Source of the DNA: Pristiophorus japonicus
Taxonomy: Eukaryota
DNA: 64,000 nucleotides
Assembly: GCF_044704955.1 (NCBI RefSeq)
Contig: NC_091999.1
Location: 5,456,001-5,520,000 of the forward strand
Reading direction: 5' to 3'
Of this stretch, positions 18,274 through 64,000 are shown in pieces. Made by a program: the position numbers and the translations under genes. The notes beneath the pieces were generated by a model. That model was not told the origin of the DNA, made no database searches, and saw nothing but the letters and a program-made list of their open reading frames with translations. The number at the start of each line of letters is the position of its first letter. The first letter of the stretch is position 1.

Positions 18274-20153
18274 ATGCATGGACAAGTGACGGGTCTAGCG
18301 TACGCCATTTGCTATCCTCTTCTGGCAGCTTTTGGTGTTCCAGGTAAGGCCCTGCGATAAGTCCTTCGTTGCACAGATCAGTCCATCAGTCTGAGCTGTC
18401 TCGGTTCTCTACCTGTGTAATTGTCCGCAGAACATTTCTCTGTGTTTCTTTCCTGCAGAGTAAACACTTCGGTGAAATCGGTTCCATCCACACTGTCTGT
18501 TATCATTCCCCTGGCTGTTCAATACCATATTTTACAAAGGTTAAAGGAGAGTTTCAGTCTGGATCTCGCGATTTGAGTTCTCAGTACAGGCTGACCCGGC
18601 ATAACGATAGGATGATGGTGAAAATACATTGTAATGTGTATATTCAGAGAGTAGAATCTCAGTCTGGTCTCCGGGATTTGAGTTCTCAATCAAGGCTGCC
18701 TGGACAGGTTAGATACAGGAAGAATGTTCCCAATGTTGGGGAAGTCCAGAACCAGGGGACACAGTCTTAGGATAAGAGGTAGGCCATTTAGGACCGAGAT
18801 GAGGAGAAACTTCTTCACTCAGAGAGTTGTTAACCTGTGGAATTCCCTACCGCAGAGAGTTGTTGAGGCCAGTTCATTGGATATATTCAAGAGGGAGTTA
18901 GATATGGCCCTTACGGCTAAGGGGATCAAGGGGTATGGAGAGAAAGCAGGAAAGGGGTACTGAGGTGAATGATCAGCCATGATCTTATTGAATGGCGGTG
19001 CAGGCTCGAAGGGCCGAATGGCCTACTCCTGCACCTATTTTCTATGTGTCTGTGTTTCAGTGCAGTATTTTGAGAGCACGGCATTGTCAGAGCTGCCCTT
19101 CTTCTGATGAGGTGTTAATCCTCAACCGTGCGCCCCTATCCTGTTGGGTTAGGTGCCCCATTAAAAATCCAAGAAACCTGGATCCCTCTTTGGAGCAGTC
19201 TGCACAATCATTAATGTGGCTCTTTGCTTCTATTTTTGTCAGGCAACTTGGCGACCATTGTGATCCTGTCCCGAGGAAGGTGCGGTCTCTCCAGATGTAT
19301 CACCCGGTACCTGGTGGGGATGGCGGTGACGGACCTCCTGGTCCTCATCACGGCAGTGATATTGAACCGTATCAGCGTCATCTATTTCCCGGTTCTCTTC
19401 CTCTCCACCACTCCCGTCTGTAGCCTCAAAATCGCTCTGATCTATGTAGCCAGGGACTGCTCGGTCTGGTTAACGGTCGCTTTCACCTTCGATCGATTTG
19501 TGGCTATTTGCTGCCCAAAGTTGAAAGCAAAATATTGCACCGAGAGAACGGCTGCCATTGTAATGGGAACGCTTTGTGCCGTGAGCTGTGTCAAAAACTT
19601 CCCCTGGTACTTTGTGTACGAGCCTTTGTATATTATTGACGGTGTACCCTGGTACTGCAACATTAAGTTAAAGTTTTACACTGAACTTTTTTGGACAGCG
19701 TTTGACTCGATTGACCGTATTTTAAACCCCTGTGCCCCGTTCGTCCTGATGTTACTGTTCAACGCTGTGACCGTCAGAAACATTCTGGTGGCCAACAGAG
19801 CCCGCAAGAGACTCCGGGCCCACAGCAGCGGGGAGAATCAGAGTGACCGAGAGATGGAGAGCCGGAGAAAATCCATCGTTTTACTCTTCACCATCTCGGG
19901 CAGTTTCCTCGTGTTATGGACCACCTATGTTGTAAATTTCTTATACGTGCGATTTTCAAGCAGCAGTTATTCGACAGGCTCTAGCGGCAACGACCCAAGG
20001 TTTATTTTGCAGGAAAGTGGGAATATGCTGCAGCTCCTGAGCTGTTGCACTAACACGTGTATTTATGCGGGGACCCAGAGGAAATTCAGAGAGGAATTTT
20101 GCAACGGGTTGAAATACCCGCTCAATCTCCTCATTAAAATCGTAAAGTCGTGA
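18274..20153 (+). CDS. GPR139-like: GPR139-like class A GPCR, two exons (18274-18343, 19243-20153), 326 aa
   Basis: Exon 1 MHGQVTGLAYAICYPLLAAFGVP G|gtaag splices in phase 1 to gtcag|GC AAC. Seven-TM pattern with MAVTDLL, FTFDRFVAIC, CTERTA and TNTCIY. No stops. Confidence 0.9.
18701..19058 (+). mobile_element. CR1 3' fragment in the GPCR intron
   Basis: MFPMLGKSRTRGH..WNSLP plus 3' UTR. Confidence 0.9.
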
Positions 20154-21344
20154 AAACAAATGAATTATTACCATTTTTCGAGACTGTTCCGTTTCATGGT
20201 CCAACCTGTACTCTTACTCCCGACTCCCCGGACTATCCTGCATTTCCTTCCCAGATCGAATCGAGGGCTCTCTCCCTCTCTAAGATCCTTCGAGTCGCCG
20301 GTGTTCCCTAAAATAACATGCAACCAGGAGGAGAATTGCAAAAGCACGATTTTACAACCATTTAGAGAGTCGTTAATAACCGTATTCAATTTACCAGGTC
20401 ACAGCTGCTTTGCTGAAATGTTCATTGAGATTTTATCCAGTTCTCGTGGCCTGAGCCCTGGGGCAAGTCTGGGTTCAGACGTCAAACGACAGCCAGAGAT
20501 TTGATTTGTTTTACATGTTGTTAAACATTTAATCATTGTGAAGAACGTCAGGCCCGGGGGTGGTTTATAAAACACACGCGAATGTAAGCGGAGGAATCCT
20601 TAACAGAGGGGCATGTCATTAACTTTAGAGCCAGGCTATTCAGGATTCAAATCAGAAAATACTTTTTCTCGTAAAGTTACTAGAAATCTGGAATAGTCCC
20701 CCTCAAAATGTTATGGATGCTGGAGGACAAATGAAAATTTCACAACTGAGATCGACAAAGTTTGGTTAGGTAATGATATTAATGGATTATGAAGCCACGG
20801 CGAGAAATTGAGTTGAGGTACGAGTCAGTCGTGATCGAATTGAAAGGTGGGACAGACCTGAGGGGTTCAATGGCTGAATTCTGTCCCTATCGGTTTATTG
20901 CCAGAAGCCAAAACTGAAATATTGCCCCGAAGAAACGGCTGCTGCCGTTCGAGGAACAATTGAGTGTGCTGTCCTGTAAAGAACACTTTCTAGTAGTTCA
21001 TGTACAAAGTGAACATTGAATTTCAAATAATCCATGGTTTTGTCATTGTAACACGAGATATTGTTTATTCACAGGTATGGATATAAATTAAATTCCTTCA
21101 TTATATTTTAACACCGTTTATTCCATTTGATTTGATTCTGCTGCTCAATGCAGTAACTGTCAGGCATTTTTTGGCCATTTTACTGTTGGTTATATCTGGA
21201 AATGTTACCCTGTTATGCGCATTAATTATTTACTATTCTGTCTGTCAACGAAAGTACATTTTAGTCTTTATACCTGTGTCTCTACATCACTTTGTGCAAA
21301 AATTCGGATAAAGGCTTCACCCTCGTGAATCGCCTATTTATTCA

Positions 21345-26016: not shown

Positions 26017-29000
26017 GTTCCCGCTCACTGGGCAATGGAGATCCGGCACTGTCCCCACACATTGTTCCTCACTCACTGGGCAATGGGAGCCCGCACTGTC
26101 CCCACACATTGTTCCTCACTCACTGGGCAATGGGAGCCCGCACTGTCACCACACATTGTTCACACTCACTGGGCAATGGGAGCTCGCACTGTCACCACAC
26201 ATTGTTCACACTCACTGGGCAATGGGAGCTCGCACTGTCCCCACACATTGCTCACACTCACTGGGCAATGGGAGCTCGCACTGTCCCCACACATTGTTCA
26301 CACTCACTGGGCAATGGGAGCTCGCACTGTCCCCACACATTGTTCACACTCACTGGGCAATGGGAGCTCGCACTGTCCCCACACATTGTTCACACTCACT
26401 GGGCAATGGGAGCTCGCACTGTCCCCACACATTGTTCACACTCACTGGGCAATGGAGACCCGCACTGTCCCCACACATTGTTCACACTCACTGGGCAATG
26501 GGAACCCGCACTGTCCCCATACATTGTTCACACTCACTGGGCAATGGGAGCCCGCACTGTCCCCACACATTGTTCACACTCACTGAGCAATGGAGATCCG
26601 CATTGTCCCCACACACTGTTCACACTCACTGGGCAATGGGAACACGCACTGTCCCCACACATTGTTCACACTCACTGGGCAATGGGAGCTCGCACTGTCC
26701 CCACACATTGTTCACACTCACTGGGCAATGGGAGCTCGCACTGTCCCCACACATTGTTCACACTCACTGGGCAATGGAGACCCGCACTGTCCCCACACAT
26801 TGTTCACACTCACTGGGCAATGGGAACCCGCACTGTCCCCATACATTGTTCACACTCACTGGGCAATGGGAGCTCGCACTGTCCCCACACATTGTTCACA
26901 CTCACTGGGCAATGGGAACCTGCACTGTCCCCACACATTGTTCACACTCACTGGGCAATGGGAGCTCGCACTGTCCCCACACGTTGTTCACACTCACTGG
27001 GCAATGGGAGCTCGCACTGTCCCCACACATTGTTCACACTCACTGGGCAATGGGAGCTCGCACTGTCCCCACACATTGTTCACACTCACTGGGCAATGGG
27101 AGCTCGCACTGTCCCCACACATTGTTCACACTCACTGGGCAATGGGAACCCGCACTGTCCCCACACATTGTTCCTCACTCACTGGGCAATGGGAGCTCGC
27201 ACTGTCCCCACACATTGTTCACACTCACTGGGCAATGTAAGCCCGCACTGACCCCACACACTGTTCACACTCACTGGGCAATGGAGATCCGCACTGTCCC
27301 CACACATTGTTGACACTCACTGGGCAATGTAAGCCCGCACTGTCACCACACATTGCTCACACTCACTGGGCAATGTAAGCCCGCACTGTCCCCACACATT
27401 GTTCCTCACTCACTGGGCAATGTAAGCCCGCACTGTCACCACACATTGTTCACACTCACTGGGCAATGGGAGCCCGCACTGTCCCCACACATTGTTCACA
27501 CTCACTGGGCAATGGGAGCCCGCACTGTCACCACACATTGTTCACACTCACTGGGCAATGGAGATCCGCACTGTCCCCACACGTTGTTCACACTCACTGG
27601 GCAATGACCGCACTGTCCCCACACATTGTTCACACTCACTGGGCAATGACCGCACTGTCCCCACACATTGTTCACACTCACTGGGCAATGGGAGCCCGCA
27701 CTGTCCCCACACATTGTTCACACTCACTGGGCAATGACCGCACTGTCCCCACACATTGTTCACACTCACTGGGCAATGGGAGCCCGCACTGTCCCCACAC
27801 ATTGTTCACACTCACTGGGCAATGGAGATCCGCACTGTCCCCACACATTGTTCACACTCACTGGGCAATGGAGATCCGCATTGTCCCCACACATTGTTCA
27901 CACTCACTGGGCAATGGAGACCCGCACTGTCCCCATACATTGTTCACACTCGCTGGGCAATGGGAGCTCGCACTGTCCCCACACGTTGTTCACACTCACT
28001 GGGCAATGGGAGCTCGCACTGTCCCCACACATTGTTCACACTCACTGGGCAATGGAGATCCGCACTGTCCCCGTACATTGTTCACACTCACTGGGCAATG
28101 GGAGCTCGCACTGTCCCCACACATTGTTCACACTCACTGGGCAATGGGAGCTCGCACTGTCCCCACACATTGTTCACACTCACTGGGCAATGGGAGCTCG
28201 CACTGTCCCCACACATTGTTCACACTCACTGGGCAATGGAGATCCGCACTGTCCCCACACATTGTTCACACTCACTGGGCAATGACCGCACTGTCCCCAC
28301 ACATTGTTCACACTCACTGGGCAATGGGAGCCCGCACTGTCCCCACACATTGTTCACACTCACTGGGCAATGACCGCACTGTCCCCACACATTGTTCACA
28401 CTCACTGGGCAATGGGAGCCCGCACTGTCCCCACACATTGTTCACACTCACTGGGCAATGGAGATCCGCACTGTCCCCACACATTGTTCACACTCACTGG
28501 GCAATGGAGATCCGCATTGTCCCCACACATTGTTCACACTCACTGGGCAATGGAGACCCGCACTGTCCCCATACATTGTTCACACTCGCTGGGCAATGGG
28601 AGCTCGCACTGTCCCCACACGTTGTTCACACTCACTGGGCAATGGGAGCTCGCACTGTCCCCACACATTGTTCACACTCACTGGGCAATGGAGATCCGCA
28701 CTGTCCCCGTACATTGTTCACACTCACTGGGCAATGGGAGCTCGCACTGTCCCCACACATTGTTCACACTCACTGGGCAATGGGAGCTCGCACTGTCCCC
28801 ACACATTGTTCACACTCACTGGGCAATGGGAGCTCGCACTGTCCCCACACATTGTTCACACTCACTGGGCAATGGAGATCCGCACTGTCCCCACACATTG
28901 TTCACACTCACTGGGCAATGGGAGCTCGCACTGTCCCCACACATTGTTCACACTCACTGGGCAATGGGAGCTCGCACTGTCCCCACACATTGTTCACACT

Positions 29001-32000
29001 CACTGGGCAATGGAGATCCGCACTGACCCCACACATTGTTCACACTCACTGGGCAATGGGAGCTCGCACTGTCCCCACACATTGTTCACACTCACTGGGC
29101 AATGGGAGCTCGCACTGTCCCCACACATTGTTCACACTCACTGGGCAATGGGAGCCCGCACTGTCCCCACACACTGTTCACACTCATCGGGGAATGTAAG
29201 CCCGCACTGTCCCCACACATTGTTCACACTCACTGGGCAATGGAGATCCGCACTGTCCCCACACATTGTTCACACTCACTGGGCAATGACCGCACTGTTC
29301 CCACACATTGTTCACACTCACTGGGCAATGGAGATCCGCACTGTCCCCACACATTGTTCACACTCACTGGGCAATGGGAGTTCGCACTGTCCCCACACAC
29401 TGTTCACACTCACTGGGCAATGTAAGCCCGCACTGTCACCACACACTGTTCACACTCACTGGGCAATGTAAGCCCGCACTGTCCCCACATATTGTTCACA
29501 CTCATTGGGTAATGGGAACCGCACTGTCCTCACACATTGTTCCCACTCACTGGGCAATGTGAGCCCGCAATGTCCCCACATTGTTCACACTCACTGGGCA
29601 ATGGGAGCCCGCACTGTTCCCACACATTGTTCCCACTCACTGGGCAATGGGAGCTCGCACTGTCCCCACACATTGTTCACACTCACTGGGCAATGGAGAT
29701 CCGCACTGTCCCCACACATTGTTCACACTCACTGGGCAATGGGAGCTCGCACTGTCCTCACACATTGTTCCCACTCACTGGGCAATGTGAGCCCGCAATG
29801 TCCCCACATTGTTCACACTCATTGGGCAATGGGAGCCCGCACTGTCCTCACACATTGTTCACACTCACTGGGCAATGGGAGCCCGCACTGTCCTCACACA
29901 TTGTTCACACTCACTGGGCAATGACCGCACTGTCCCCACACATTGTTCACACTCACTGGGCAATGACCGCACTGTCCCCACACATTGTTCACACTCACTG
30001 GGCAATGACCGCACTGTCCTCACACATTGTTCACACTCACTGGGCAATGACCGCACTGTCCCCACACATTGTTCACACTCACTGGGCAATGGAGATCCGC
30101 ACTGTCCCCACACATTGTTCACACTCATTGGGCAATGGAGATCCGCACTGTCCCCACACACTGTTCACACTCACTGGGCAATGGGAGCCCGCACTGACCC
30201 CACACATTGTTCACACTCACTGGGCAATGGAGATCCGTACTTTCCCCACACACTGTTCACACTCACTGGGCAATGGGAGCCCGCACTGACGCCACACATT
30301 GTTCACACTCACTGGGCAATGGAGACCCGCACTGTCCCCACACATTGTTCACACTCACTGGGCAATGGGAGCCCGCACTGACCCCACACATTGTTCACAC
30401 TCACTGGGCAATGGAGACCCGCACTGTCCCCACACATTGTTCACACTCACTGGGCAATGGAGATCCGCACTGTCCCCACACATTGTTCACACTCACTGGG
30501 CAATGGGAGCTCGCACTGACCCCACACATTGTTCACACTCACTGGGCAATGGAGATCCGCACTGTCCCCACACATTGTTCACACTCACTGGGCAATGGGA
30601 GCCCGCACTGTCCCCATACATTGTTCACACTCACTGAGCAATGGAGATCCGCACTGTCCCCATAAATTTTTCACACTCACTGGGCAATGGGAGCCCGCAC
30701 TGTCCCCACACATTGTTCACACTCACTGGGCAATGGGAGCCCGCACTGACCCCACACATTGTTCACACTCACTGGGCAATGGGAACCCGCACTGTCCCCA
30801 TACATTGTTCACACTCACTGGGCAATGGAGATCCGCACTGTCCCCACACATTGTTCCTCACTCACTGGGCAATGACGGCACTGTCCACATACATTGTTCA
30901 CACTCACTGGGCAATGGGAGCCCGCACTGTCCCCACACATTGTTCACACTCACTGGGCAATGGGAGCCCGCACTGTCCCCACACATTGTTCACACTCACT
31001 GGGCAATGGAGATCCGTACTTTCCCCACACACTGTTCACACTCACTGGGCTATGGGAGCCCGCACTGACCCCACACATTGTTCACATTCACTGGGCAATG
31101 GAGACCCGCACTGTCCCCACACATTGTTCACACTCACTGGGCAATGGGAGCTCGCACTGTCCCCATACATTGTTCACACTCACTGGGCAATGGGAACCCG
31201 CACTGTCCTCACACATTGTTCACACTCACTGGGCAATGGGAGCCCGCACTGTCCCCACACATTGTTCACACTCACTGGGCAATGGAGATCCGCACTGTCC
31301 CCATACATTGTTCACACTCACTGGGCAATGGGAGCCCGCACTGACCCCACACATTGTTCACACTCACTGGGCAATGGAGATCCGCACTGTCCCCATAAAT
31401 GTTTCACACTCACTGGGCAATGGGAGCCCGCACTGTCCCCACACATTGTTCACACTCACTGGGCAATGGGAGCTCGCACTGTCCCCACACATTGTTCACA
31501 CTCACTGGGCAATGGGAACCCGCACTGTCCCCACACATTGTTCACACTCACTGGGCAATGGGAGCTCGCACTGTCCCCACACGTTGTTCACACTCACTGG
31601 GCAATGGGAGCTCGCACTGTCCCCACACATTGTTCACACTCACTGGGCAATGGGAGCTCGCACTGTCCCCACACATTGTTCACACTCACTGGGCAATGGG
31701 AGCTCGCACTGTCCCCACACATTGTTCACACTCACTGGGCAATGGGAACCCGCACTGTCCCCACACATTGTTCCTCACTCACTGGGCAATGGGAGCTCGC
31801 ACTGTCCCCACACATTGTTCACACTCACTGGGCAATGTAAGCCCGCACTGACCCCACACACTGTTCACACTCACTGGGCAATGGAGATCCGCACTGTCCC
31901 CACACATTGTTGACACTCACTGGGCAATGTAAGCCCGCACTGTCACCACACATTGCTCACACTCACTGAGCAATGTAAGCCCGCACTGTCCCCACACATT

Positions 32001-34974
32001 GTTCCTCACTCACTGGGCAATGTAAGCCCGCACTGTCACCACACATTGTTCACACTCACTGGGCAATGGGAGCCCGCACTGTCCCCACACATTGTTCACA
32101 CTCACTGGGCAATGGGAGCCCGCACTGTCACCACACATTGTTCACACTCACTGGGCAATGGAGATCCGCACTGTCCCCACACGTTGTTCACACTCACTGG
32201 GCAATGACCGCACTGTCCCCACACATTGTTCACACTCACTGGGCAATGACCGCACTGTCCCCACACATTGTTCACACTCACTGGGCAATGGGAGCCCGCA
32301 CTGTCCCCACACATTGTTCACACTCACTGGGCAATGACCGCACTGTCCCCACACATTGTTCACACTCACTGGGCAATGGGAGCCCGCACTGTCCCCACAC
32401 ATTGTTCACACTCACTGGGCAATGGAGATCCGCACTGTCCCCACACATTGTTCACACTCACTGGGCAATGGAGATCCGCATTGTCCCCACACATTGTTCA
32501 CACTCACTGGGCAATGGAGACCCGCACTGTCCCCATACATTGTTCACACTCGCTGGGCAATGGGAGCTCGCACTGTCCCCACACGTTGTTCACACTCACT
32601 GGGCAATGGGAGCTCGCACTGTCCCCACACATTGTTCACACTCACTGGGCAATGGAGATCCGCACTGTCCCCATACATTGTTCACACTCACTGGGCAATG
32701 GGAGCTCGCACTGTCCCCACACATTGTTCACACTCACTGGGCAATGGGAGCTCGCACTGTCCCCACACATTGTTCACACTCACTGGGCAATGGGAGCTCG
32801 CACTGTCCCCACACATTGTTCACACTCACTGGGCAATGGAGATCCGCACTGTCCCCACACATTGTTCACACTCACTGGGCAATGGGAGCTCGCACTGTCC
32901 CCACACATTGTTCACACTCACTGGGCAATGGGAGCTCGCACTGTCCCCACACATTGTTCACACTCACTGGGCAATGGAGATCCGCACTGACCCCACACAT
33001 TGTTCACACTCACTGGGCAATGGGAGCTCGCACTGTCCCCACACATTGTTCACACTCACTGGGCAATGGGAGCTCGCACTGTCCCCACACATTGTTCACA
33101 CTCACTGGGCAATGGGAGCCCGCACTGTCCCCACACACTGTTCACACTCATCGGGGAATGTAAGCCCGCACTGTCCCCACACATTGTTCACACTCACTGG
33201 GCAATGGAGATCCGCACTGTCCCCACACATTGTTCACACTCACTGGGCAATGACCGCACTGTTCCCACACATTGTTCACACTCACTGGGCAATGGAGATC
33301 CGCACTGTCCCCACACATTGTTCACACTCACTGGGCAATGGGAGCTCGCACTGTCCCCACACACTGTTCACACTCACTGGGCAATGTAAGCCCGCACTGT
33401 CACCACACACTGTTCACACTCACTGGGCAATGTAAGCCCGCACTGTCCCCACATATTGTTCACACTCATTGGGTAATGGGAACCGCACTGTCCTCACACA
33501 TTGTTCCCACTCACTGGGCAATGTGAGCCCGCAATGTCCCCACATTGTTCACACTCACTGGGCAATGGGAGCCCGCACTGTTCCCACACATTGTTCCCAC
33601 TCACTGGGCAATGGGAGCTCGCACTGTCCCCACACATTGTTCACACTCACTGGGCAATGGAGATCCGCACTGTCCCCACACATTGTTCACACTCACTGGG
33701 CAATGGGAGCTCGCACTGTCCTCACACATTGTTCCCACTCACTGGGCAATGTGAGCCCGCAATGTCCCCACATTGTTCACACTCATTGGGCAATGGGAGC
33801 CCGCACTGTCCTCACACATTGTTCACACTCACTGGGCAATGGGAGCCCGCACTGTCCTCACACATTGTTCACACTCACTGGGCAATGACCGCACTGTCCC
33901 CACACATTGTTCACACTCACTGGGCAATGGGAGCCCGCACTGACCCCACACATTGTTCACACTCACTGGGCAATGGGAACCCGCACTGTCCCCATACATT
34001 GTTCACACTCACTGGGCAATGGAGATCCGCACTGTCCCCACACATTGTTCCTCACTCACTGGGCAATGACGGCACTGTCCACATACATTGTTCACACTCA
34101 CTGGGCAATGGGAGCCCGCACTGTCCCCACACATTGTTCACACTCACTGGGCAATGGGAGCCCGCACTGTCCCCACACATTGTTCACACTCACTGGGCAA
34201 TGGAGATCCGTACTTTCCCCACACACTGTTCACACTCACTGGGCTATGGGAGCCCGCACTGACCCCACACATTGTTCACATTCACTGGGCAATGGAGACC
34301 CGCACTGTCCCCACACATTGTTCACACTCACTGGGCAATGGGAGCTCGCACTGTCCCCATACATTGTTCACACTCACTGGGCAATGGGAACCCGCACTGT
34401 CCTCACACATTGTTCACACTCACTGGGCAATGGGAGCCCGCACTGTCCCCACACATTGTTCACACTCACTGGGCAATGGAGATCCGCACTGTCCCCATAC
34501 ATTGTTCACACTCACTGGGCAATGGGAGCCCGCACTGACCCCACACATTGTTCACACTCACTGGGCAATGGAGATCCGCACTGTCCCCATAAATGTTTCA
34601 CACTCACTGGGCAATGGGAGCCCGCACTGTCCCCACACATTGTTCACACTCACTTGGCAATGGGAACCCGCACTGTCCTCACACACTGTTCACACTCACT
34701 GGGCAATGGGAACCCGCACTGTCCCCATACATTGTTCCCACTCACTGGGCAATGGAGATCCGCACTGTCCCCACACATTGTTCCTCACTCACTGGGCAAT
34801 GACGGCACTGTCCCCACACATTGTTCCCACTCACTGGGCAATGGGAGCCCGCACTGTCCCCACACATTGTTCACACTCACTGGGCAATGGGAACCCGCAC
34901 TGTCCTCACACACTGTTCACACTCACTGGGCAATGGGAGCCCGCACTGTCCCCACACACTGTTCCCCACTCACA
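26017..34974. repeat. 46-bp tandem satellite (~195 units, with 42- to 47-bp variants)
   Basis: Consensus CACTCACTGGGCAATGGGAGCTCGCACTGTCCCCACACATTGTTCA repeated head to tail. Variation is concentrated in the GGAGCTC/GAGATCC/TAAGCCC/ACC core. Confidence 0.98.
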
Positions 34975-34978
34975 GTGG

Positions 34979-36020
34979 ATTAGGATAAAATTAGATGAAT
35001 AGCTTGTCAGAGCTCAAAATAGAAAAGTCACTTGTTCCTGATGGGATGCATCCTAGCTTAGTGAGGGGGACAAGGATGGAAATAGCGGCGGATCTGATCA
35101 AAGTTTTTGAAACTTTTTGGATAAAGGAGAGTTTGTGAAAACTGGAGGATTGCAAATGTCACACACTCTTCAAAAGAGGACATTGCGTTTACCCGTTAAC
35201 TGCAGGCCAGTCAGCCTAACATCGATGGCAGGAAAGTTTCTTGTGAACAAAATCCCGGACAACCTTAATTGTCACTTGGAAGAACATGGGTTACTAAATG
35301 ACAGCCAACACGGATTTGTAAAAGTCAAATCGTGTCTGACAAACTTGATTAAGTACCTCGATGAAATCATGGAGAATGCTGATCAAGATAACGCGCTTGA
35401 TGTGAATGTGGACTTTGAAAAGCTGTTGAATAAAATGCCGTGCAATAGACTTGTTTGAAAAATGCAAGTCCATGGTCTTAAAGAGTCAGTGGCAGAATGG
35501 CTACAAACTTAGCCAATGACAGAAGGCAGAGAGTAGCGGCGAACAGTTATTTTTCAGATTGGGGCACATTTACAGCGGTGTCCCAGGTGGCGGTATTAGC
35601 ATCACTACTTTTTTGGTGGACAGTAATCAACTGTACTTAGCTGTAGGGAGATAATTTGAAAGTTTGCAGATGAGACAAAACTTGGAAATATAGCAAAATG
35701 TGAAGCAGACGCCTGGAGGACATAGACGACTGGTGACTTGGGCAGACACATGGCAAATGGAATTTAGTGCAGGGAAGCATGAAGTGATGCTTATTGGTTG
35801 AAGCATTAGGAGACACAGTATTATCTAAATGGTAAAATTTTAAAGGAACTGCAGGAACAGAGACCACAGCGTAAAGGTACACATATCTTTGAAGGAGGCA
35901 AGACAAGTTGATAAGGCTGTTAAAAAAGCATACAGTAATCTGGGCTTTACAAATAGAGGCACCGTGTAAGAGAACAAGGAAGTTATGCAAACCTTTTCTA
36001 AATCAGTGATTAGGCCTTGC
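34979..36020 (+). mobile_element. Old degenerate CR1 fragment
   Basis: RPVSLTS, SQHGFVK and SCLTNLI with multiple stops. Confidence 0.8.
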
Positions 36021-37530: not shown

Positions 37531-40056
37531 AACATAGAAACATAGAAACATAGAAAATAGGTGCAGGAGCAGGCCATTCAGCCCTTCTAGCCTGCACCGC
37601 CATTCAATGAGTTCATGGCTGAACATGCAACTTCAGTACCTCCTTCCTGCTTTCACGCCATACCCCTTGATCCCCCGAGTTGTAAGGACTTCATCTAACT
37701 CCCTTTTGAATATATTTAGTGAATTGGCCTCAACTACTTTCTGTGGTAGAGAATTCCACAGGTTCACCACTCTCTGGGTGAAGAAGTTTCTCCTTATCTC
37801 CATCCTAAATGGCTTACCCCTTATCCTTAGACTGTGACCTCTGGTTCTGGACTTCCCCAACATTGGGAACATTCTTCCTGCATCCAACCTGTCCAAACCC
37901 GTCAGAATTTTAAACGTTTCTATGAGATCCCCTCTCATTCTTCTGAACTCCAGTGAATACAAGCCCAGTTGATCCAGTCTTTCTTGATAGGTCAGTCCCA
38001 CCATCCCGGGAATCAGTCTGGTGAATCTTCGCTGCACTCCCTCAATAGCAAGAATGTCCTTCCTCAAGTTAGGAGACCAAAACTGCACACAATACTCCAG
38101 GTGTGGCCTCACCAAGGCCCTGTACAACTGTAGCAACACCTCCCTGCCCCTGTACTCAAATCCCCTCGCTATGAAGGCCAACATGCCATTTGCTTTCTTA
38201 ACCGCCTGCTGTACCTGCATGCCAACCTTCAATGACTGATGTACCATGACACCCAGGTCTCGTTGCACCTTCCCTTTTCCTAATCTGTCACCATTCAGAT
38301 AATAGTCTGTCTCTCTGTTTTTATGACCAAAGTGGATAATCTCACATTTATCCACATTATACTTCATCTGCCACGCATTTGCCCACTCACCTAACCTATC
38401 CAAGTCACTCTGCAGCCTCATAGCATCCTCCTCGCAGCTCACACTGCCACCCAACTTAGTGTCATCCGCAAATTTGGAGATACTACATTTAATCCCCTCG
38501 TCTAAATCATTAATGTACAATGTAAACAACTGGGGCACCAGCACAGAACCCTGCGGTACCCCACTAGTCACTGCCTGCCATTCCGAAAAGTACCCATTTA
38601 CTCCTACTCTTTGCTTCCTGTCTGACAACCAGTTCTCAATCCACGTCAGCACACTACCCCCAATCCCATGTGCTTTAACTTTGCACATTAATCTCCTGTG
38701 TGGGACCTTGTCGAAAGCCTTCTGAAAGTCCAAATATACCACATCAACTGGTACTCCTTTGTTCACTTTATTGGAAACATCCTCAAAAAATTCCAGAAGA
38801 TTTGTCAAGCATGATCTCCCTTTTACAAATCCATGCTGACTTGGACCTATCATGTCACCATTTTCCAAATGCGCTGCTATGACATCCTTAATAATTGATT
38901 CCATCATTTTACCCACTACTGAGGTCAGGCTGACCGGTCTATAATTCCCTGCTTTCTCTCTCCCTCCTTTTTTAAAAAGTGGGGTTACATTGGCTACCCT
39001 CCACTCCATAGGAACTGATCCAGAGTCAATGGAATGTTGGAAAATGACTGTCAATGCATCCGCTATTTCCAAGGCCACCTCCTTAAGTACTCTGGGATGC
39101 AGTCCATCAGGCCCTGGGGATTTATCGGCCTTCAATCCCATCAATTTCCCCAACACAATTTCCCGACTAATAAAGATTTCCCTCAGTTCCTCCTCCTTAC
39201 TAGACCCTCTGATCACTTTTATATCCGAAAGGTTGTTTGTGTCCTCCTTAGTGAATACTGAACCAAAGTACTTGTTCAATTGGTCTGCCATTTCTTTGTT
39301 CCCCGTTATGACTTCCCCTGATTCTGACTGCAGGGGATCTACGTTTGTCTTTACTAACCTTTTTCTCTTTACATACCTATAGAAACTTTTGCAATCCGCT
39401 TTAATGTTCCCTGCAAGCTTCTTCTCGTACTCCATTTTCCCTGCCCTAATCAAACCCTTTGTCCTCCTCTGCTGAGTTCTAAATTTCTCCCAGTCCCCAG
39501 GTTCGCTGCTATTTCTGGCCAATTTGTATGCCACTTCCTTGGCTTTAATACTGTCCCTGATTTCCCTTGATAGCCACGGTTGAGCCACCTTCCCTTTTTT
39601 ATTTTTACGCCAGACAGGAATGTACAATTGTTGTAATTCATCCATGCGGTCTCTAAATGTCTGCCATTGCCCATCCACAGTCAACCCCTTAAGTATCATT
39701 AGCCAATCTATCTTGGCCAATTCATGCCTCATACCTTCAAAGTTACCCTTCTTTAAGTTCTGGACCATGGTCTCTGAATTAACTGTTTCATTCTCCATCC
39801 TAATGCAGAATTCCACCATATTATGGTCACTCTTCCCCAAGGGGCCTCGCACAATGAGATTGCTAATTAATCCTCTCTCATTACACAACACCCAGTCTAA
39901 GATGGCCTCCCCCCTAGTTGGTTCCTCGACATATTGGTCTAGAAAACCATCCCTTATGCACTCCAGGAAATCCTCCTCCATCGTATTGCTTCCAGTTTGG
40001 CTGGTCCAATCTATGTGCATATTAAAGTCACCCATTATAACTGCTGCACCTTTATT
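37531..40056 (-). mobile_element. CR1 LINE, 5'-truncated, with an uninterrupted 800-aa ORF2
   Basis: ORF 37633-40035 runs from MGDFN through RT (FADD) to the C-terminus without stops. Tail is (CATAGAAA)n on the + strand. Confidence 0.97.
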
Positions 40057-40589
40057 GAACCACCTAGATCTTATTTTAATATGGTGATCGTTTGTTCAGG
40101 ATTCATCAGGAAATAGTTTATTTTATTTGTCCCCGATCGAAGCCCTTTATAACTTAAACACTTCGATTAGATTCCAACCCTCAACCCCCCTAACCTCAAA
40201 GGTCAGTGGATGTCTGTGAGTGACTGGCCCGCTGTGGCAACTGAACCAGTTGGCACATGAAGGGTCTGAAGTCAATACCCACGCCCCCTGTAGGGGCTGG
40301 AACACCGGTTCCTGTGGGCGCTGGACTCACGGACACTGCAGGGACTGGAGCCATGATCCCTGTTGGGATTGGATCCATAAACTCTCTTGGAACTGGACCC
40401 CTGACACCTGTTGGTACTGCAATCTTGATCCCTGTTGGGAATGGACACCGACCCATGTTCGGACTGGAGCCCTGATCCCTGTTGAGACTGGACTCCCGGG
40501 TGCTGCTGGGACTGGACCACCAAGGCCCTGTTGGGACTGGAGCCCCGGCCACTTTTGGAAATGGACCCCTTTTCCTCTTCTTTTCTATG

Positions 40590-58952: not shown

Positions 58953-59152
58953 AGGAAGAGCTGTAGGATGTTCCGCTCCCCTAACATGCTCCGGCATATC
59001 TGTATCTTAACGACATCTATCCTCCATGGTCCCGTGACACTTAATAACGTTTCCTAACTAAAGTATTTCAATCAACCTGTGCGAGCAACCAGAAATCAGT
59101 GTCATTGCCTGTTAAACCTCTCTCTTTCTTGTTAATTCGCTGTACCTCGGCA

Positions 59153-59504
59153 TTTTTTTTTTTAAATTCGTAGCCAATCTTTCCAATTCTTTGTCAAATC
59201 ACAAACGCCAGAGGTCACCTTGCACACATCAAGGATCACTCTGCGCCAATGCTCTTAGCCAAAAGGCCTAGAGCCACTGCACCGTTCCTGGAAGTACTGC
59301 AATACCAGGTTCATGCCGTGGAGGTGGACGGGTCAGGTCCCCCACACACCTCTGTGGAGGTGGATGGGTCAAGCCACCCCACCCACCTCCTGTTTCCAAA
59401 AAAGCAAGCATATACCTTCCTGATCCAGGGAGAACCACTTTGGGGTCATGGTTACTCCCCTGTCAGGTCAGTTACGCATGATCTTAGCCAAAAGTCTGAG
59501 AAGC
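59153..59504 (-). mobile_element. U2 snRNA-derived retroposon (SINEU-like) with poly(A) tail and TSD
   Basis: Minus strand has GCTTCTCAGACTTTTGGCTAAGATCA (U2 5' end), TTTTTTGG (Sm-site-like) and ACCTGGTATTGCAGTACTTCCAGGAACGGTGCA (U2 3' end). A second GGCCTTTTGGCTAAGA, a unique tail and poly(A) follow. CTCGGCATTT is duplicated at 59146-59155 and 59504-59513. Confidence 0.85.
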
Positions 59505-61413
59505 TCGGCATTTATTGCCCAACAAAACTCTGCCCCTTTGTGGTAGGCCTTTTACTTGAACCACTGCAGAAAGTGTTCTTTTCAGTGGTTTTGTACCACT
59601 GAATGGCTTGTGAGGTCACTTGAAGGGACAGTTACGAATAAACTATAATGGTGTGGGGACTGGCGTCCCATATAGACACAGACCGGGAAAGACGACAGGT
59701 CCTAAAGGAAACTGGTGAGCCAATTGTTTTTTTTTATAAGAATCCGACCATTTCACGATCACTCTCACTGAAACCATTTTGTTTACAGATATAATGGTGA
59801 GCCTGTGTACAGTGAATGGTGCAGAGAGAAATCAATAGATGGAGGGAGATAAAGGTGAGCGTGAGCACAGTGATACCGAAAGCAACCAACAGCAGGAGTT
59901 AAGTACAGGTGAGACAGAGCGTCCAGTGATACAGAGAGACACCAACAGGGGGAGGGAGATAATGGTGAGACCGAGTACAGTGATACAGAGAGCCACCAAC
60001 AGATGGCGATAGAAAAAGACGCATGTCAGACTGTGTCGGCAGACGTCGGGATGCACAGCACCACAGGTAAGCTTGGGAATATTTGGAAATATGTGGATTG
60101 TAAAAGGAATGAGGAGATGGGGAAACAAGAGCAGAGGGCAAAGCTCTGCAGATGTGGAAAATCATCAGAACGAAAGGTAATGTGACAGAAAGATAACAGA
60201 AAAACAGCACAGGAACTTGTGAAATAGCACAATGATTTAATGAAAGGTAGATCTGAGCAATGTACCTGTGCAGGTGAGTAACCCTCTCCCCCGCCCACGC
60301 AGTGGATTAACCCAGGCTATGACTGTGCCCAGTGGTGAAAAGGTGAGCCACAGTCAGACCCGTTAGACCCTATACCTGTTTTACATGAAGCGATAAAAAA
60401 AATCACGCTGACCCTAAATAAGTCACACAACGAAACTACAACCTTCTGAGAAACATGGCATCGCATTAACCGCATCCCATCGAGAACTGACTGTACAATA
60501 CTGCTGAAAGCTGTGATTCCACTTAACGTATGTGGCGCCTTCACCGACTAAGCACTGCTTGGATGATGTACCGTGTCTACTCTAACCATCTGTCTCTATC
60601 ACAGTGAGCGTATTGCAGCAGAGTGAGCGAATCTCACTGAAGTGCACACCTTACCCCCCAAATCGTAAACAATTAATTCTGTGTATGAATTAATTGAATG
60701 GAAAGACTCTGGGTAGTGTGGTTAATGGCGTTCACGGCATTTGAACTTGCGACCACAATGTGCAATACTCACCGGATATATTTCGACTTATAATAAATAT
60801 ATGGCGATAAAGACAGTCGCAGTTCATGCTCCTTTTGTCCGTGCTGGTCCGAATGGTGTGTCTGCAACAACGTCACAGAGGAGCAGTTATTTAGTGGAAA
60901 AATATGTATCTAACGATTTGCTTTGCTTGCGATGTGATTGAAGTCATTCGGGTGAGGATTTGTTAACTTCTTTGTTGTACGTGAAAGAACCACATGTTCC
61001 AAACATTACAGGTGTCTCTTTTAAACCTAGACATGTGCTCGTTTTATATCTTGGAGAGGAAGATTTACCATCACCAAAGAGCGACCATCAGTAACCCATG
61101 GACACCTGCAGGCTTCTCTTGCTTGAAGCTCAGCTCCTTGGTTATGAATACCGTAGGGATTGAAATGACCTCCTAAAAACAGGCGGCGCCATATGGATAC
61201 TAATGTAGTAAAGGGGCTGCTTCACGATAGGAAGTGGACCATTACAAAGATGAGAATATCATACAGCGTCTTTCAGACCCATCCACCCTATCAACCAACC
61301 ATCCATCCGTTCATAGGTCTATTAATAAAATCATTCAGACATCCAACTATCCATCCAATCCAAATACATACTTCCACTTCAACGTGCCTGCTTATCAATT
61401 TGAGGATGTATGC

Positions 61414-61641: not shown

Positions 61642-64000
61642 TATCTCTCGATTTGTCTCTATATTTCTCACACCATCTATCTCTCCATCTATTTCTCTAT
61701 CTCTCCACTTAGATCTCTCGCGATCTATCTATATATATTTATTTATATATATTACAGGGTTAGGATTTGCTGGACAGATGCTGCGGCTGACTGCTGCTAC
61801 TGGCCGGATGTCTGAGACATTGGATATATTTCGTTTTCTGAGAGATGGAAACAGTTCACGTGGTTACACAACTAAAAATAGGAAATTAATTCCAGTACTG
61901 TTGCTGGGTAGATTTGTATATAAATAGGCCTCTTTGACCCTATGAAGGGCTTGAAGTTGGATTTCAGTCAAGCAGTCATTTTTGAGGATACACATCTTAG
62001 ATTCCCTGAACAGAACCCCCAGATGCTTCCTGTCAGTTGACCATGTGAAGGGTTTAATTTGGCTTTCATCCAATTGGTTAGTGATGAGGAAACACATCTT
62101 TGATTCACTGCACAGAACCCCCAGCTGCTTCCTGTAAATGACATATGGTATTCGAGTCTCCTTGACGGCAATTGGCTGGCTTGCTGCCGAATAATATTTG
62201 GCATGAATATTAACTTGGAACAAGGTAGGATTTAACTATGTGAACATTAAGCTATTTCGCTGCGCTCTTACAATAAAGAAGCATTTTGCATGGTCAACAT
62301 AGAAAGAAGGATTTCAGGCAAATTCCATACTCACAATATAATAAAATAGCATCACACAAAAACGTATCCATATGTTATTTAATTAGAATTATTTCCAAAT
62401 AAAGATAATTCTAGATAATTCAGCACGTTGGTTCAGTACTGCACGAAGTGTTCGAGAGAAACTTTACTGACCCCACACCCACGTTGTAATGAGATGAATG
62501 GGATTCGCAAAGTAAATACAAAATAGGTGGAATTGACTCCAACCCCTGCACTTCCTTGAATATTCTCATAGAGTTCAGTGTCTCATTTAAACTAAGGTCT
62601 CACTTACTACTGATTAGCAGCCACGCACTCTGCAGTTCAATTTGTTACTGATTTGGATCTCTGATGAATCCCTCTCATAGCCTGGCTACGAATGGGCCGA
62701 GACACGTCCAGTTTGCGATCTGTGTCAGCGTCAGATGAAGCATTTATTCTTGCGATATTCGGTAACATACCGCTAAATCCTGATACACTGCGTTCCTGAT
62801 ACTTTTGCACAGTCGTTAGTTTTAAATTAGCTGTAAGGATTTGGACGCCGCGGTTTGCTGATCGCATTATCCGGTCTAATTCACGATCATCTCTTTATAC
62901 AAAGAAAACTGATCTGAAGCGGGCGGGACGCACATGCTTATGTTTCTCTGTCAATTCACACCTTAATTATCAGGCAAGCAGAATTATTTTGCAGCAAATT
63001 TCAAACGGCTGTCTTCACGTCACAGATTTGGGGGTAGTTAGTGAAATTCCATAATATATATTTGGGTAATGTGAAGGGTTTCTCCTCATCTCCGGACCCA
63101 AATCGTGTAGTTATAGCCATCCGCATTGTGAGTCGAATCACATTAACCAGCTCCCGCATTCAGATACATAGTTCTAATGTAATTAATGAGACAGGGTGTA
63201 TTTTATTTGTACCGAGTGATGGGATAGAGAGGGGGAGATTGAGTAACACATACTGGCAAGCTCCTTAGACCCTGATAATGTAATTTCATCCTAGCGATTT
63301 ACATTTCATGTGAAGTAGTGTGGAAATAAAGGGATTTCATTGACATTCCAGATGTGAATCCATTCTGTTGTTGATGTGGAAGGTGTGACGCGGATGCAGT
63401 AACCACCTCTATCAGGGAATCAATAGGTGGCGCTGATACCCTCGTCACATTCTACCGTGTATTTAAATGCCTGAACTGCTTTCGAATGTATTGTGCAAAT
63501 TGTTATATGAATAAAGTGTATTTTGAAAAAAACAAAGTATTTAAATGCCAGTCACTGGGACTGCAATACTGAGTGAGTTCTTGTCAGAACCATTTACCAC
63601 ACATTGCCAGGAGAATGAGGTGGGCAATTTCTCTCAGTCTGCTGCTGGATTGATTATCCCGTGAGTAGTTTTTATTGTCCAAGTCGCTCACTGTTAACTT
63701 TTCAGTGTTAGTCTCTCTCTAAAATGTTGCAGAGTCAGGAATCATTTCTCCAGGAATAACACTCGTGGTTTTTGATTTTTTTATATAGGTGTCCAGTCGG
63801 ATGTCGTGTTGACTCAGCCACATGTAAAGATCAGGAGGCTCCCTGAGATTGACTGGAAAACCAGTGGTTTCAATCTTGGCAGCTATCGGATGTATTGGCT
63901 ACGACAAGTTCCCGGACAGGGGCTGGAGTGTCTGGCTCATTACTTTATTTCATCAAGCAATTACTACGCCCCAGGAATCGAGAGCCGATTTGCTGCAACC

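Follow-up and report, generated by a model that had tools for sequence, protein, structure and literature searches.

The window analysed here is a 64-kb stretch of DNA from the shark Pristiophorus japonicus. On its plus strand, an open reading frame at 19215-20153 encodes a GPR139-like GPCR of an expanded shark family, the first 25 residues of which reside in an upstream exon at 18274-18348 (tblastn). A UniRef entry carrying the label Pristiophorus japonicus matches the ORF with 100% identity across 97% of the query. The named proteins among its best 120 matches were all from sharks and rays. Short GPCR-like remnants are found at 20899-21173, and a GPCR pseudogene at approximately 62.5-63.1 kb, considered as a possible read-through source, was not confirmed by tblastn. 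A 9-kb satellite (26017-34973) comprises approximately 196 copies of a 46-bp unit with 91% matches; self-comparison revealed a higher-order periodicity, and the plus strand of the array carries long open frames. The window is also rich in CR1. Besides many fragments, it holds an uninterrupted CR1-like ORF2 segment of 820 amino acids with endonuclease and RT domains (37633-40095, minus strand), which suggests a young CR1 family, and a more distant RT remnant (35198-36017, plus strand) sharing 26 to 33% identity with the CR1 ORF.

The feature under study lies on the minus strand at 59146-59513, where 348 bases are enclosed by an exactly repeated 10-mer (59513-59504 and 59155-59146). The initial annotation had described a composite retroposon at this position, and every piece that it listed was found on the minus strand at the given place. 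Read 5' to 3' along that strand, the order of the insertion is U2, U1, U2, U2, tail and poly(A). The insertion is non-coding; the frames within it are spurious and protein searches conducted with them returned no match.

The proposed target site duplication (TSD) of 9 to 10 bp was borne out as an exact 10-bp duplication of AAATGCCGAG, with the 5' copy at 59504-59513 and the 3' copy at 59146-59155. This 10-mer occurs at just two sites in the 64-kb window, both of which flank the insertion, and the chance of such a duplication is approximately 1e-6 per position, or 1e-5 across ten positions. The 3' copy is preceded by the expected poly(A), an uninterrupted run of 11 A residues (59153-59163, minus strand) whose final three residues form part of the TSD. 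Ten runs of at least nine A residues are present in the window and only one of the ten is associated with such a duplication. A T/AAA target site had also been proposed; the site is there, but its match to the L1 endonuclease consensus is a loose one. The flank hosting the element (59504-59760, minus strand) bears a putative resemblance to the 3' end of an L2/HE1-type repeat of sharks, ancient and much eroded. No relative of this flank, and none of the empty target site, was found within the window. We conclude that the insertion is a real, LINE-mobilised U2/U1 composite in shark DNA. The TSD and the A-run support an L1/Tx1-type retrotransposition route, as originally suggested, and by analogy with known systems an L1/Tx1-clade LINE is the likely agent of mobilisation.

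Close by, the plus strand carries at 63459-63549 an inserted segment of 65 bp that has an AATAAA signal, an A-rich tail and an exact 13-bp TSD. Its end is similar to what is presumably a Tx1-type LINE 3' end. The presence of this second insertion, with its signal, A-tail and 13-bp duplication, indicates that such machinery has acted in this genome. Its TSD and the target of the U2/U1 element have in common the 8-mer TAAATGCC, which occurs at only these two sites in the window. The TSDs start out of register at the two TAAATGCC sites, and the common 8-mer possibly reflects a shared target preference or chance.

Comparison with the U2 model, a check that the initial annotation had proposed, was performed using cmscan and returned a match to Rfam RF00004 at 59507-59272 with a score of 45.1 bits (E 1.2e-7). 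The gathering score for this model is 46, and no stretch of the window reached an Rfam gathering score. A standard scan of the window is consequently blank, because the U2 match falls just short of the threshold. The element holds U2 sequence in three parts. The first is a U2 5' piece (59473-59503, minus strand; model positions 5-35) that encompasses stem-loop I, with 27 of 31 letters equal to the consensus and one broken pair in stem I. This piece stops halfway into the branch-point-pairing motif. The motif had been described as altered, and the region is indeed affected, but it is truncated after U2 position 35 at a U1 junction rather than merely altered: both the complete branch-point motif and stems IIa/IIb are absent, with U1 in their place.

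The second part is a U2 3' domain (59275-59403, minus strand), aligned to RF00004 with high posterior and comprising an Sm-like U run, a duplicated stem-loop III and stem-loop IV, the last of these being the 3' stem-loop that had been reported. This domain ends close to the natural U2 3' end. The U run of the proposed Sm-like sequence was found, but is preceded by a C where the Rfam consensus has an A. Stem III is duplicated in tandem as 2 x 36 nt (59318-59389, minus strand; TRF, 36-nt period), which accounts for the duplicated GACCC-type block of the initial annotation. The two copies are identical in 31 of 36 columns, a value equalled by none of 3000 shuffles, and the duplicated region is predicted to fold as a single nested hairpin (z -2.5, equalled by 2 of 200 shuffles). 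The third part, also anticipated, is a second U2 5' piece consisting of stem-loop I (59248-59274, minus strand; RF00004). Model positions 7-26 align at 59272-59253 with 19 of 20 letters equal to the consensus, a match that taken alone has an E value of 0.28. The two U2 5' pieces are identical at 16 of 17 letters, and both heads share a T instead of the consensus A at U2 position 30.

Between the first U2 piece and the U2 3' domain, approximately 70 nt had been set down as non-U2 sequence. This stretch is not U2, but some 45 of its nucleotides correspond to U1 positions 3-48 including stem-loop I (59428-59472, minus strand; RF00003, 20.3 bits, E 8.4e-4). The piece consists of a worn 5'-splice-site-pairing motif followed by stem-loop I, and both the splice-site motif and loop I are changed at conserved positions. 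The stem is predicted to form 11 pairs, which is not significant against shuffled sequences (z -1.5, 14 of 200 shuffles equal). The remaining spacer of approximately 24 nt (59404-59427, minus strand) falls in low-confidence columns of both the U2 and the U1 alignments and has no assigned source. Further Rfam matches on the element to SNORD94, COG3610-DE, SAM, prion and snR75 (E 0.6 to 9) were attributed to chance. Read from the alignments, the 5' module is thus a U2-bounded unit in which the U1 5' end stands in for the U2 branch-point and stem II region.

This arrangement raises the question of whether the 5' module was copied by retroposition from an expressed gene for a hybrid snRNA, one driven by a U2 promoter and with its branch-point and stem II region swapped for the U1 5' end. 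Such an origin would fit a module that opens at position 4-5 of U2 and runs nearly to the U2 3' terminus, and that has kept pairing in U1 stem I and in U2 stems III and IV. We nevertheless regard it as very improbable, given that U1 is worn at conserved positions of its splice-site motif and of loop I, that U2 stem I has a broken pair and that the Sm run lacks its leading A; additionally, no source gene was seen in the 64-kb window. It is harder still to credit that the locus itself is a functional variant snRNA gene. The near-threshold match to the U2 model over its full length would be in keeping with such a gene, but searches with consensus motifs found neither a PSE-like motif in the 150 nt upstream of the element nor an octamer in the 401 nt upstream, and no 3' box downstream of the U2 end; moreover, the TSD and poly(A) are marks of insertion. 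The copy at 59146-59513 is likely to be silent cargo with no role in splicing.

The mode of transcription was considered from the same standpoint. No match to the Pol III B box consensus is present in the element, and ARAGORN predicted 0 genes, so the element has no tRNA-derived head of the kind that marks tRNA-headed SINEs (SINE2). The start of the tail (59248-59237, minus strand) is a loose Pol III A-box-like 12-mer with one mismatch to the A-box consensus; it has no accompanying B box and is probably a chance occurrence. Internal runs of four or more T residues are located at 59493, 59403 and 59264. Transcription by Pol III is disfavoured because these runs would stop it, and transcription by Pol II from an outside promoter is likely. 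The same T-run argument against Pol III is made for the SINEU elements in the accessible text of PMC4494074.

Downstream of the second U2 5' piece, and extending to the A-run, lies an 84-nt tail (59164-59247, minus strand) that constitutes a candidate LINE-recognition region. It was earlier termed a unique tail of about 80 nt, and this description stands: no meaningful match was obtained in Rfam, Pfam, protein collections or the rest of the window. No AATAAA-type polyadenylation signal is present in the tail, which fits a templated A tail. No partner LINE for the tail was found, and no Tx1 or L1 element was identified within the window. Two candidate identities for the tail were rejected. As a LINE ORF2 C-terminus, its sole phmmer match was a 1203-aa cysteine-repeat protein, matched over 12 stretches and judged to be chance, with no match in Pfam; as a decayed U1, it was equalled in score by 2525 of 3000 shuffles, and Rfam showed no U1 in the tail. 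The 3' module, formed by the U2 head and tail together, has a predicted fold with a z of -2.45.

The element divides readily into two modules, the U2-bounded hybrid and a short U2 head with tail and A-run. This layout admits the possibility that the modules are, or derive from, separate multi-copy elements and that the present copy is a rare one-off fusion, produced at insertion by a template switch from the U2-tail module onto the U2-U1-U2 module. The 5' module stops near the natural U2 3' end, and the module after it sets in anew with U2 5' sequence. In SINEU-2, according to the accessible text of PMC4494074, 5' sequence was often added independently. The sequencing-run data described below are also close to what the 5' module alone would give. 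Nothing argues directly against a fusion of separate modules, and only the T shared by both heads at U2 position 30, a single site, hints at a common history. We consider this reading unlikely.

The state of the individual pieces bears on the age of the composite. Differences from the Rfam consensus amount to 4 of 31 letters in U2 positions 5-35. For U1, the count at strongly conserved positions (3-12 and 28-37) is 6 of 19; both counts refer to a pan-eukaryote consensus from which shark U1 and U2 may themselves differ. The stem III duplicates differ at 5 of 36 positions. The TSD copies, on the other hand, differ at 0 of 10 and a CpG is kept in both. Were all changes to have occurred after insertion, the probability of retaining an intact TSD and eight pure A residues would be 0.02 at 13% divergence, 0.002 at 20% and 0.13 at 7%, a clock that is biased because intactness is what allows a TSD to be noticed. 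The combination of worn snRNA pieces with an intact TSD indicates that this copy was likely derived from an older composite template. Together with the composite structure, it upholds the assertion of the initial annotation that the element is not a simple U2 pseudogene.

These observations also weigh on the proposal of a single-copy chimeric retropseudogene, assembled from ordinary U2 and U1 through several template switches and decayed in place. No second copy of the element was found elsewhere in the 64-kb window, and the accessible text of PMC4494074 describes known snRNA retrocopies with poly(A), TSDs and L1 template-switch chimeras. Under this proposal, the signal in the sequencing runs would have arisen through transcription or enrichment. 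A single-copy chimera would require template switching three or four times, followed by a duplication, and would leave the tail without explanation. It would also have to combine heavily worn snRNA pieces and internal duplicates with a TSD and A-run that show much less wear. We judge it improbable; if correct, the element would be an ordinary retropseudogene.

Copy number was approached through public sequence collections. Neither metagenome nor viral contigs contained a pattern spanning the U2-U1 junction (0 matches), and a pattern spanning the second head and tail gave 0 in metagenome contigs; shark DNA is not expected in these collections. Of 37 words sampled from the element, some were listed in eight sequencing runs, seven of them from organism A; the eighth (X8, organism B, 5 of 37 words) was left out of the evidence. 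The holders listed include no RNA run and have no bearing on expression. Four large runs from one sample (X1-X4) contained 28 to 29 of the 37 words (share 0.76 to 0.78) and were not counted as independent, because they may represent a duplicate deposit of the source sample. Three small runs (X5-X7), from three samples of one study and of 109 to 165 million letters, contained 18 to 21 of the 37 words; these shares of 0.49 to 0.57 denote word presence rather than alignment, in libraries that may be of RNA or targeted type. According to the accessible part of PMC12424806, Logan omits k-mers seen once.

Simulations took the letters to be sequenced bases and the DNA to be uniform; with one copy per genome, the shares of X5-X7 were reached in 0 of 3000 trials per run at assumed genome sizes of 2, 4 and 7 Gb. 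Under the same assumptions, including a genome of 2 to 7 Gb, approximately 30 to 300 copies would be needed. If the letters are instead contig letters, the X5-X7 sets have 4 to 6% of the size of the largest set. The 5' module contributes 198 of the 338 31-mers of the element (0.59), and shares of 0.49 to 0.57 cannot tell the whole composite from the 5' module, because the module alone accounts for 0.59. The X5-X7 shares are compatible with a copy number in the tens to hundreds, but also with one locus that is transcribed or with amplification of the 5' module.

Among known systems, the closest in design are the SINEU elements of crocodilians. In the accessible text of Kojima 2015 (PMC4494074), no SINEU was found outside crocodilians, and the sole SINEU source cited in the accessible parts of PMC5381603 and PMC5786205 is that same study. 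No snRNA-headed SINE in sharks was encountered in the literature searched, which was largely open-access; an existing entry for the shark element, for example in Repbase, Dfam or SINEBase, is quite possible.

The likenesses, taken from the accessible descriptions of SINEU, are extensive. As in SINEU-1 (especially 1C and 1H), -2 and -3, U1 and U2 pieces are stacked at the 5' end, and 5' addition of U1 or U2 is described as recurrent in SINEU. The shark element and SINEU also share partial internal duplication, a unique tail without a known LINE partner, poly(A), a TSD of approximately 10 bp, a length below 500 bp, T runs and the lack of an internal promoter. SINEU-3 likewise proceeds from approximately 32 nt of the U2 5' end directly to the U2 3' part, and SINEU-2 likewise joins the U1 5' end to the U2 3' part. 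On the basis of these descriptions, the shark element combines designs of SINEU-1, -2 and -3. The kinship in design with SINEU put forward by the initial annotation is borne out by the U1 and U2 heads, the TSD, the poly(A) and the short non-coding body, and is stronger than first thought because U1 sequence occupies the middle, a feature shared with SINEU-1 and SINEU-2.

There are also differences. The host is a shark rather than a crocodilian; the order U2(5')-U1(5')-U2(3', with duplicated stem III)-U2(5')-tail corresponds to no single SINEU as compared by the available text descriptions rather than by sequence; and, unlike the SINEU so described, the shark element has no evident Mariner-N4 target. 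Keno and Tx1-Mar, LINEs of the Tx1 clade, are proposed as the drivers of SINEU in the accessible portions of PMC4494074 and PMC4640811. As described there, these LINEs target or carry U2 and U1 5' pieces, the same snRNA ends that are found in the shark element; the latter, by contrast, has no ORF and is not inside a U2 gene. The snRNA retropseudogenes and chimeras made by L1 similarly have snRNA sequence, poly(A) and a TSD in common with the shark element. Whilst these are described as one-off copies of current snRNAs, the shark element consists of worn pieces and an old duplication within a fresh-looking TSD.

We favour, with a probability of roughly 0.6, a multi-copy SINEU-like family with this composite structure, of which the present element would be one recent copy. 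The lines that speak for a family are indirect: the contrast between worn pieces and intact TSD, and the word shares of X5-X7. Judging from the host lineage, such a shark family is likely to have arisen independently of crocodilian SINEU. In the scheme that we envisage, a core module comprising the short U2 5' piece, tail and A-run would have acquired the 5' module via template switching during reverse transcription, from a U2-bounded RNA with the U1 5' end in place of the branch-point and stem II region. Source copies of the composite would then have gathered base changes together with the duplication of stem III, and were likely transcribed by Pol II under an external promoter. Finally, the endonuclease and reverse transcriptase of a LINE would have primed on the A tail and inserted the copy at 59146-59513. 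The components of this scheme (target-primed reverse transcription, growth by template switching and outside Pol II promoters) are drawn from LINE biology as presented in the accessible text of PMC4494074.

A more specific version holds that the family is young and that its source copy is a hybrid U2/U1 RNA transcribed under a U2 gene promoter. The source RNA would run from the U2 cap end through the U1 5' end, in place of the branch-point region, to the U2 3' domain and the tailed module. We offer this version tentatively and think it rather unlikely in this exact form. If true, it would constitute an independent origin of the SINEU design beyond crocodilians, and the transcription of promoter-less SINEU, left as a question in the accessible text of PMC4494074, would become testable on an active family. 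In a young family, the 5' flanks of source copies could reveal the promoter. Copies of this kind score near the Rfam threshold for U2 and risk being mis-annotated as U2 genes. Should the shark family prove real, the SINEU design, including the loss of the U2 branch-point and stem II region, would recur wherever Tx1-type LINEs meet snRNAs.
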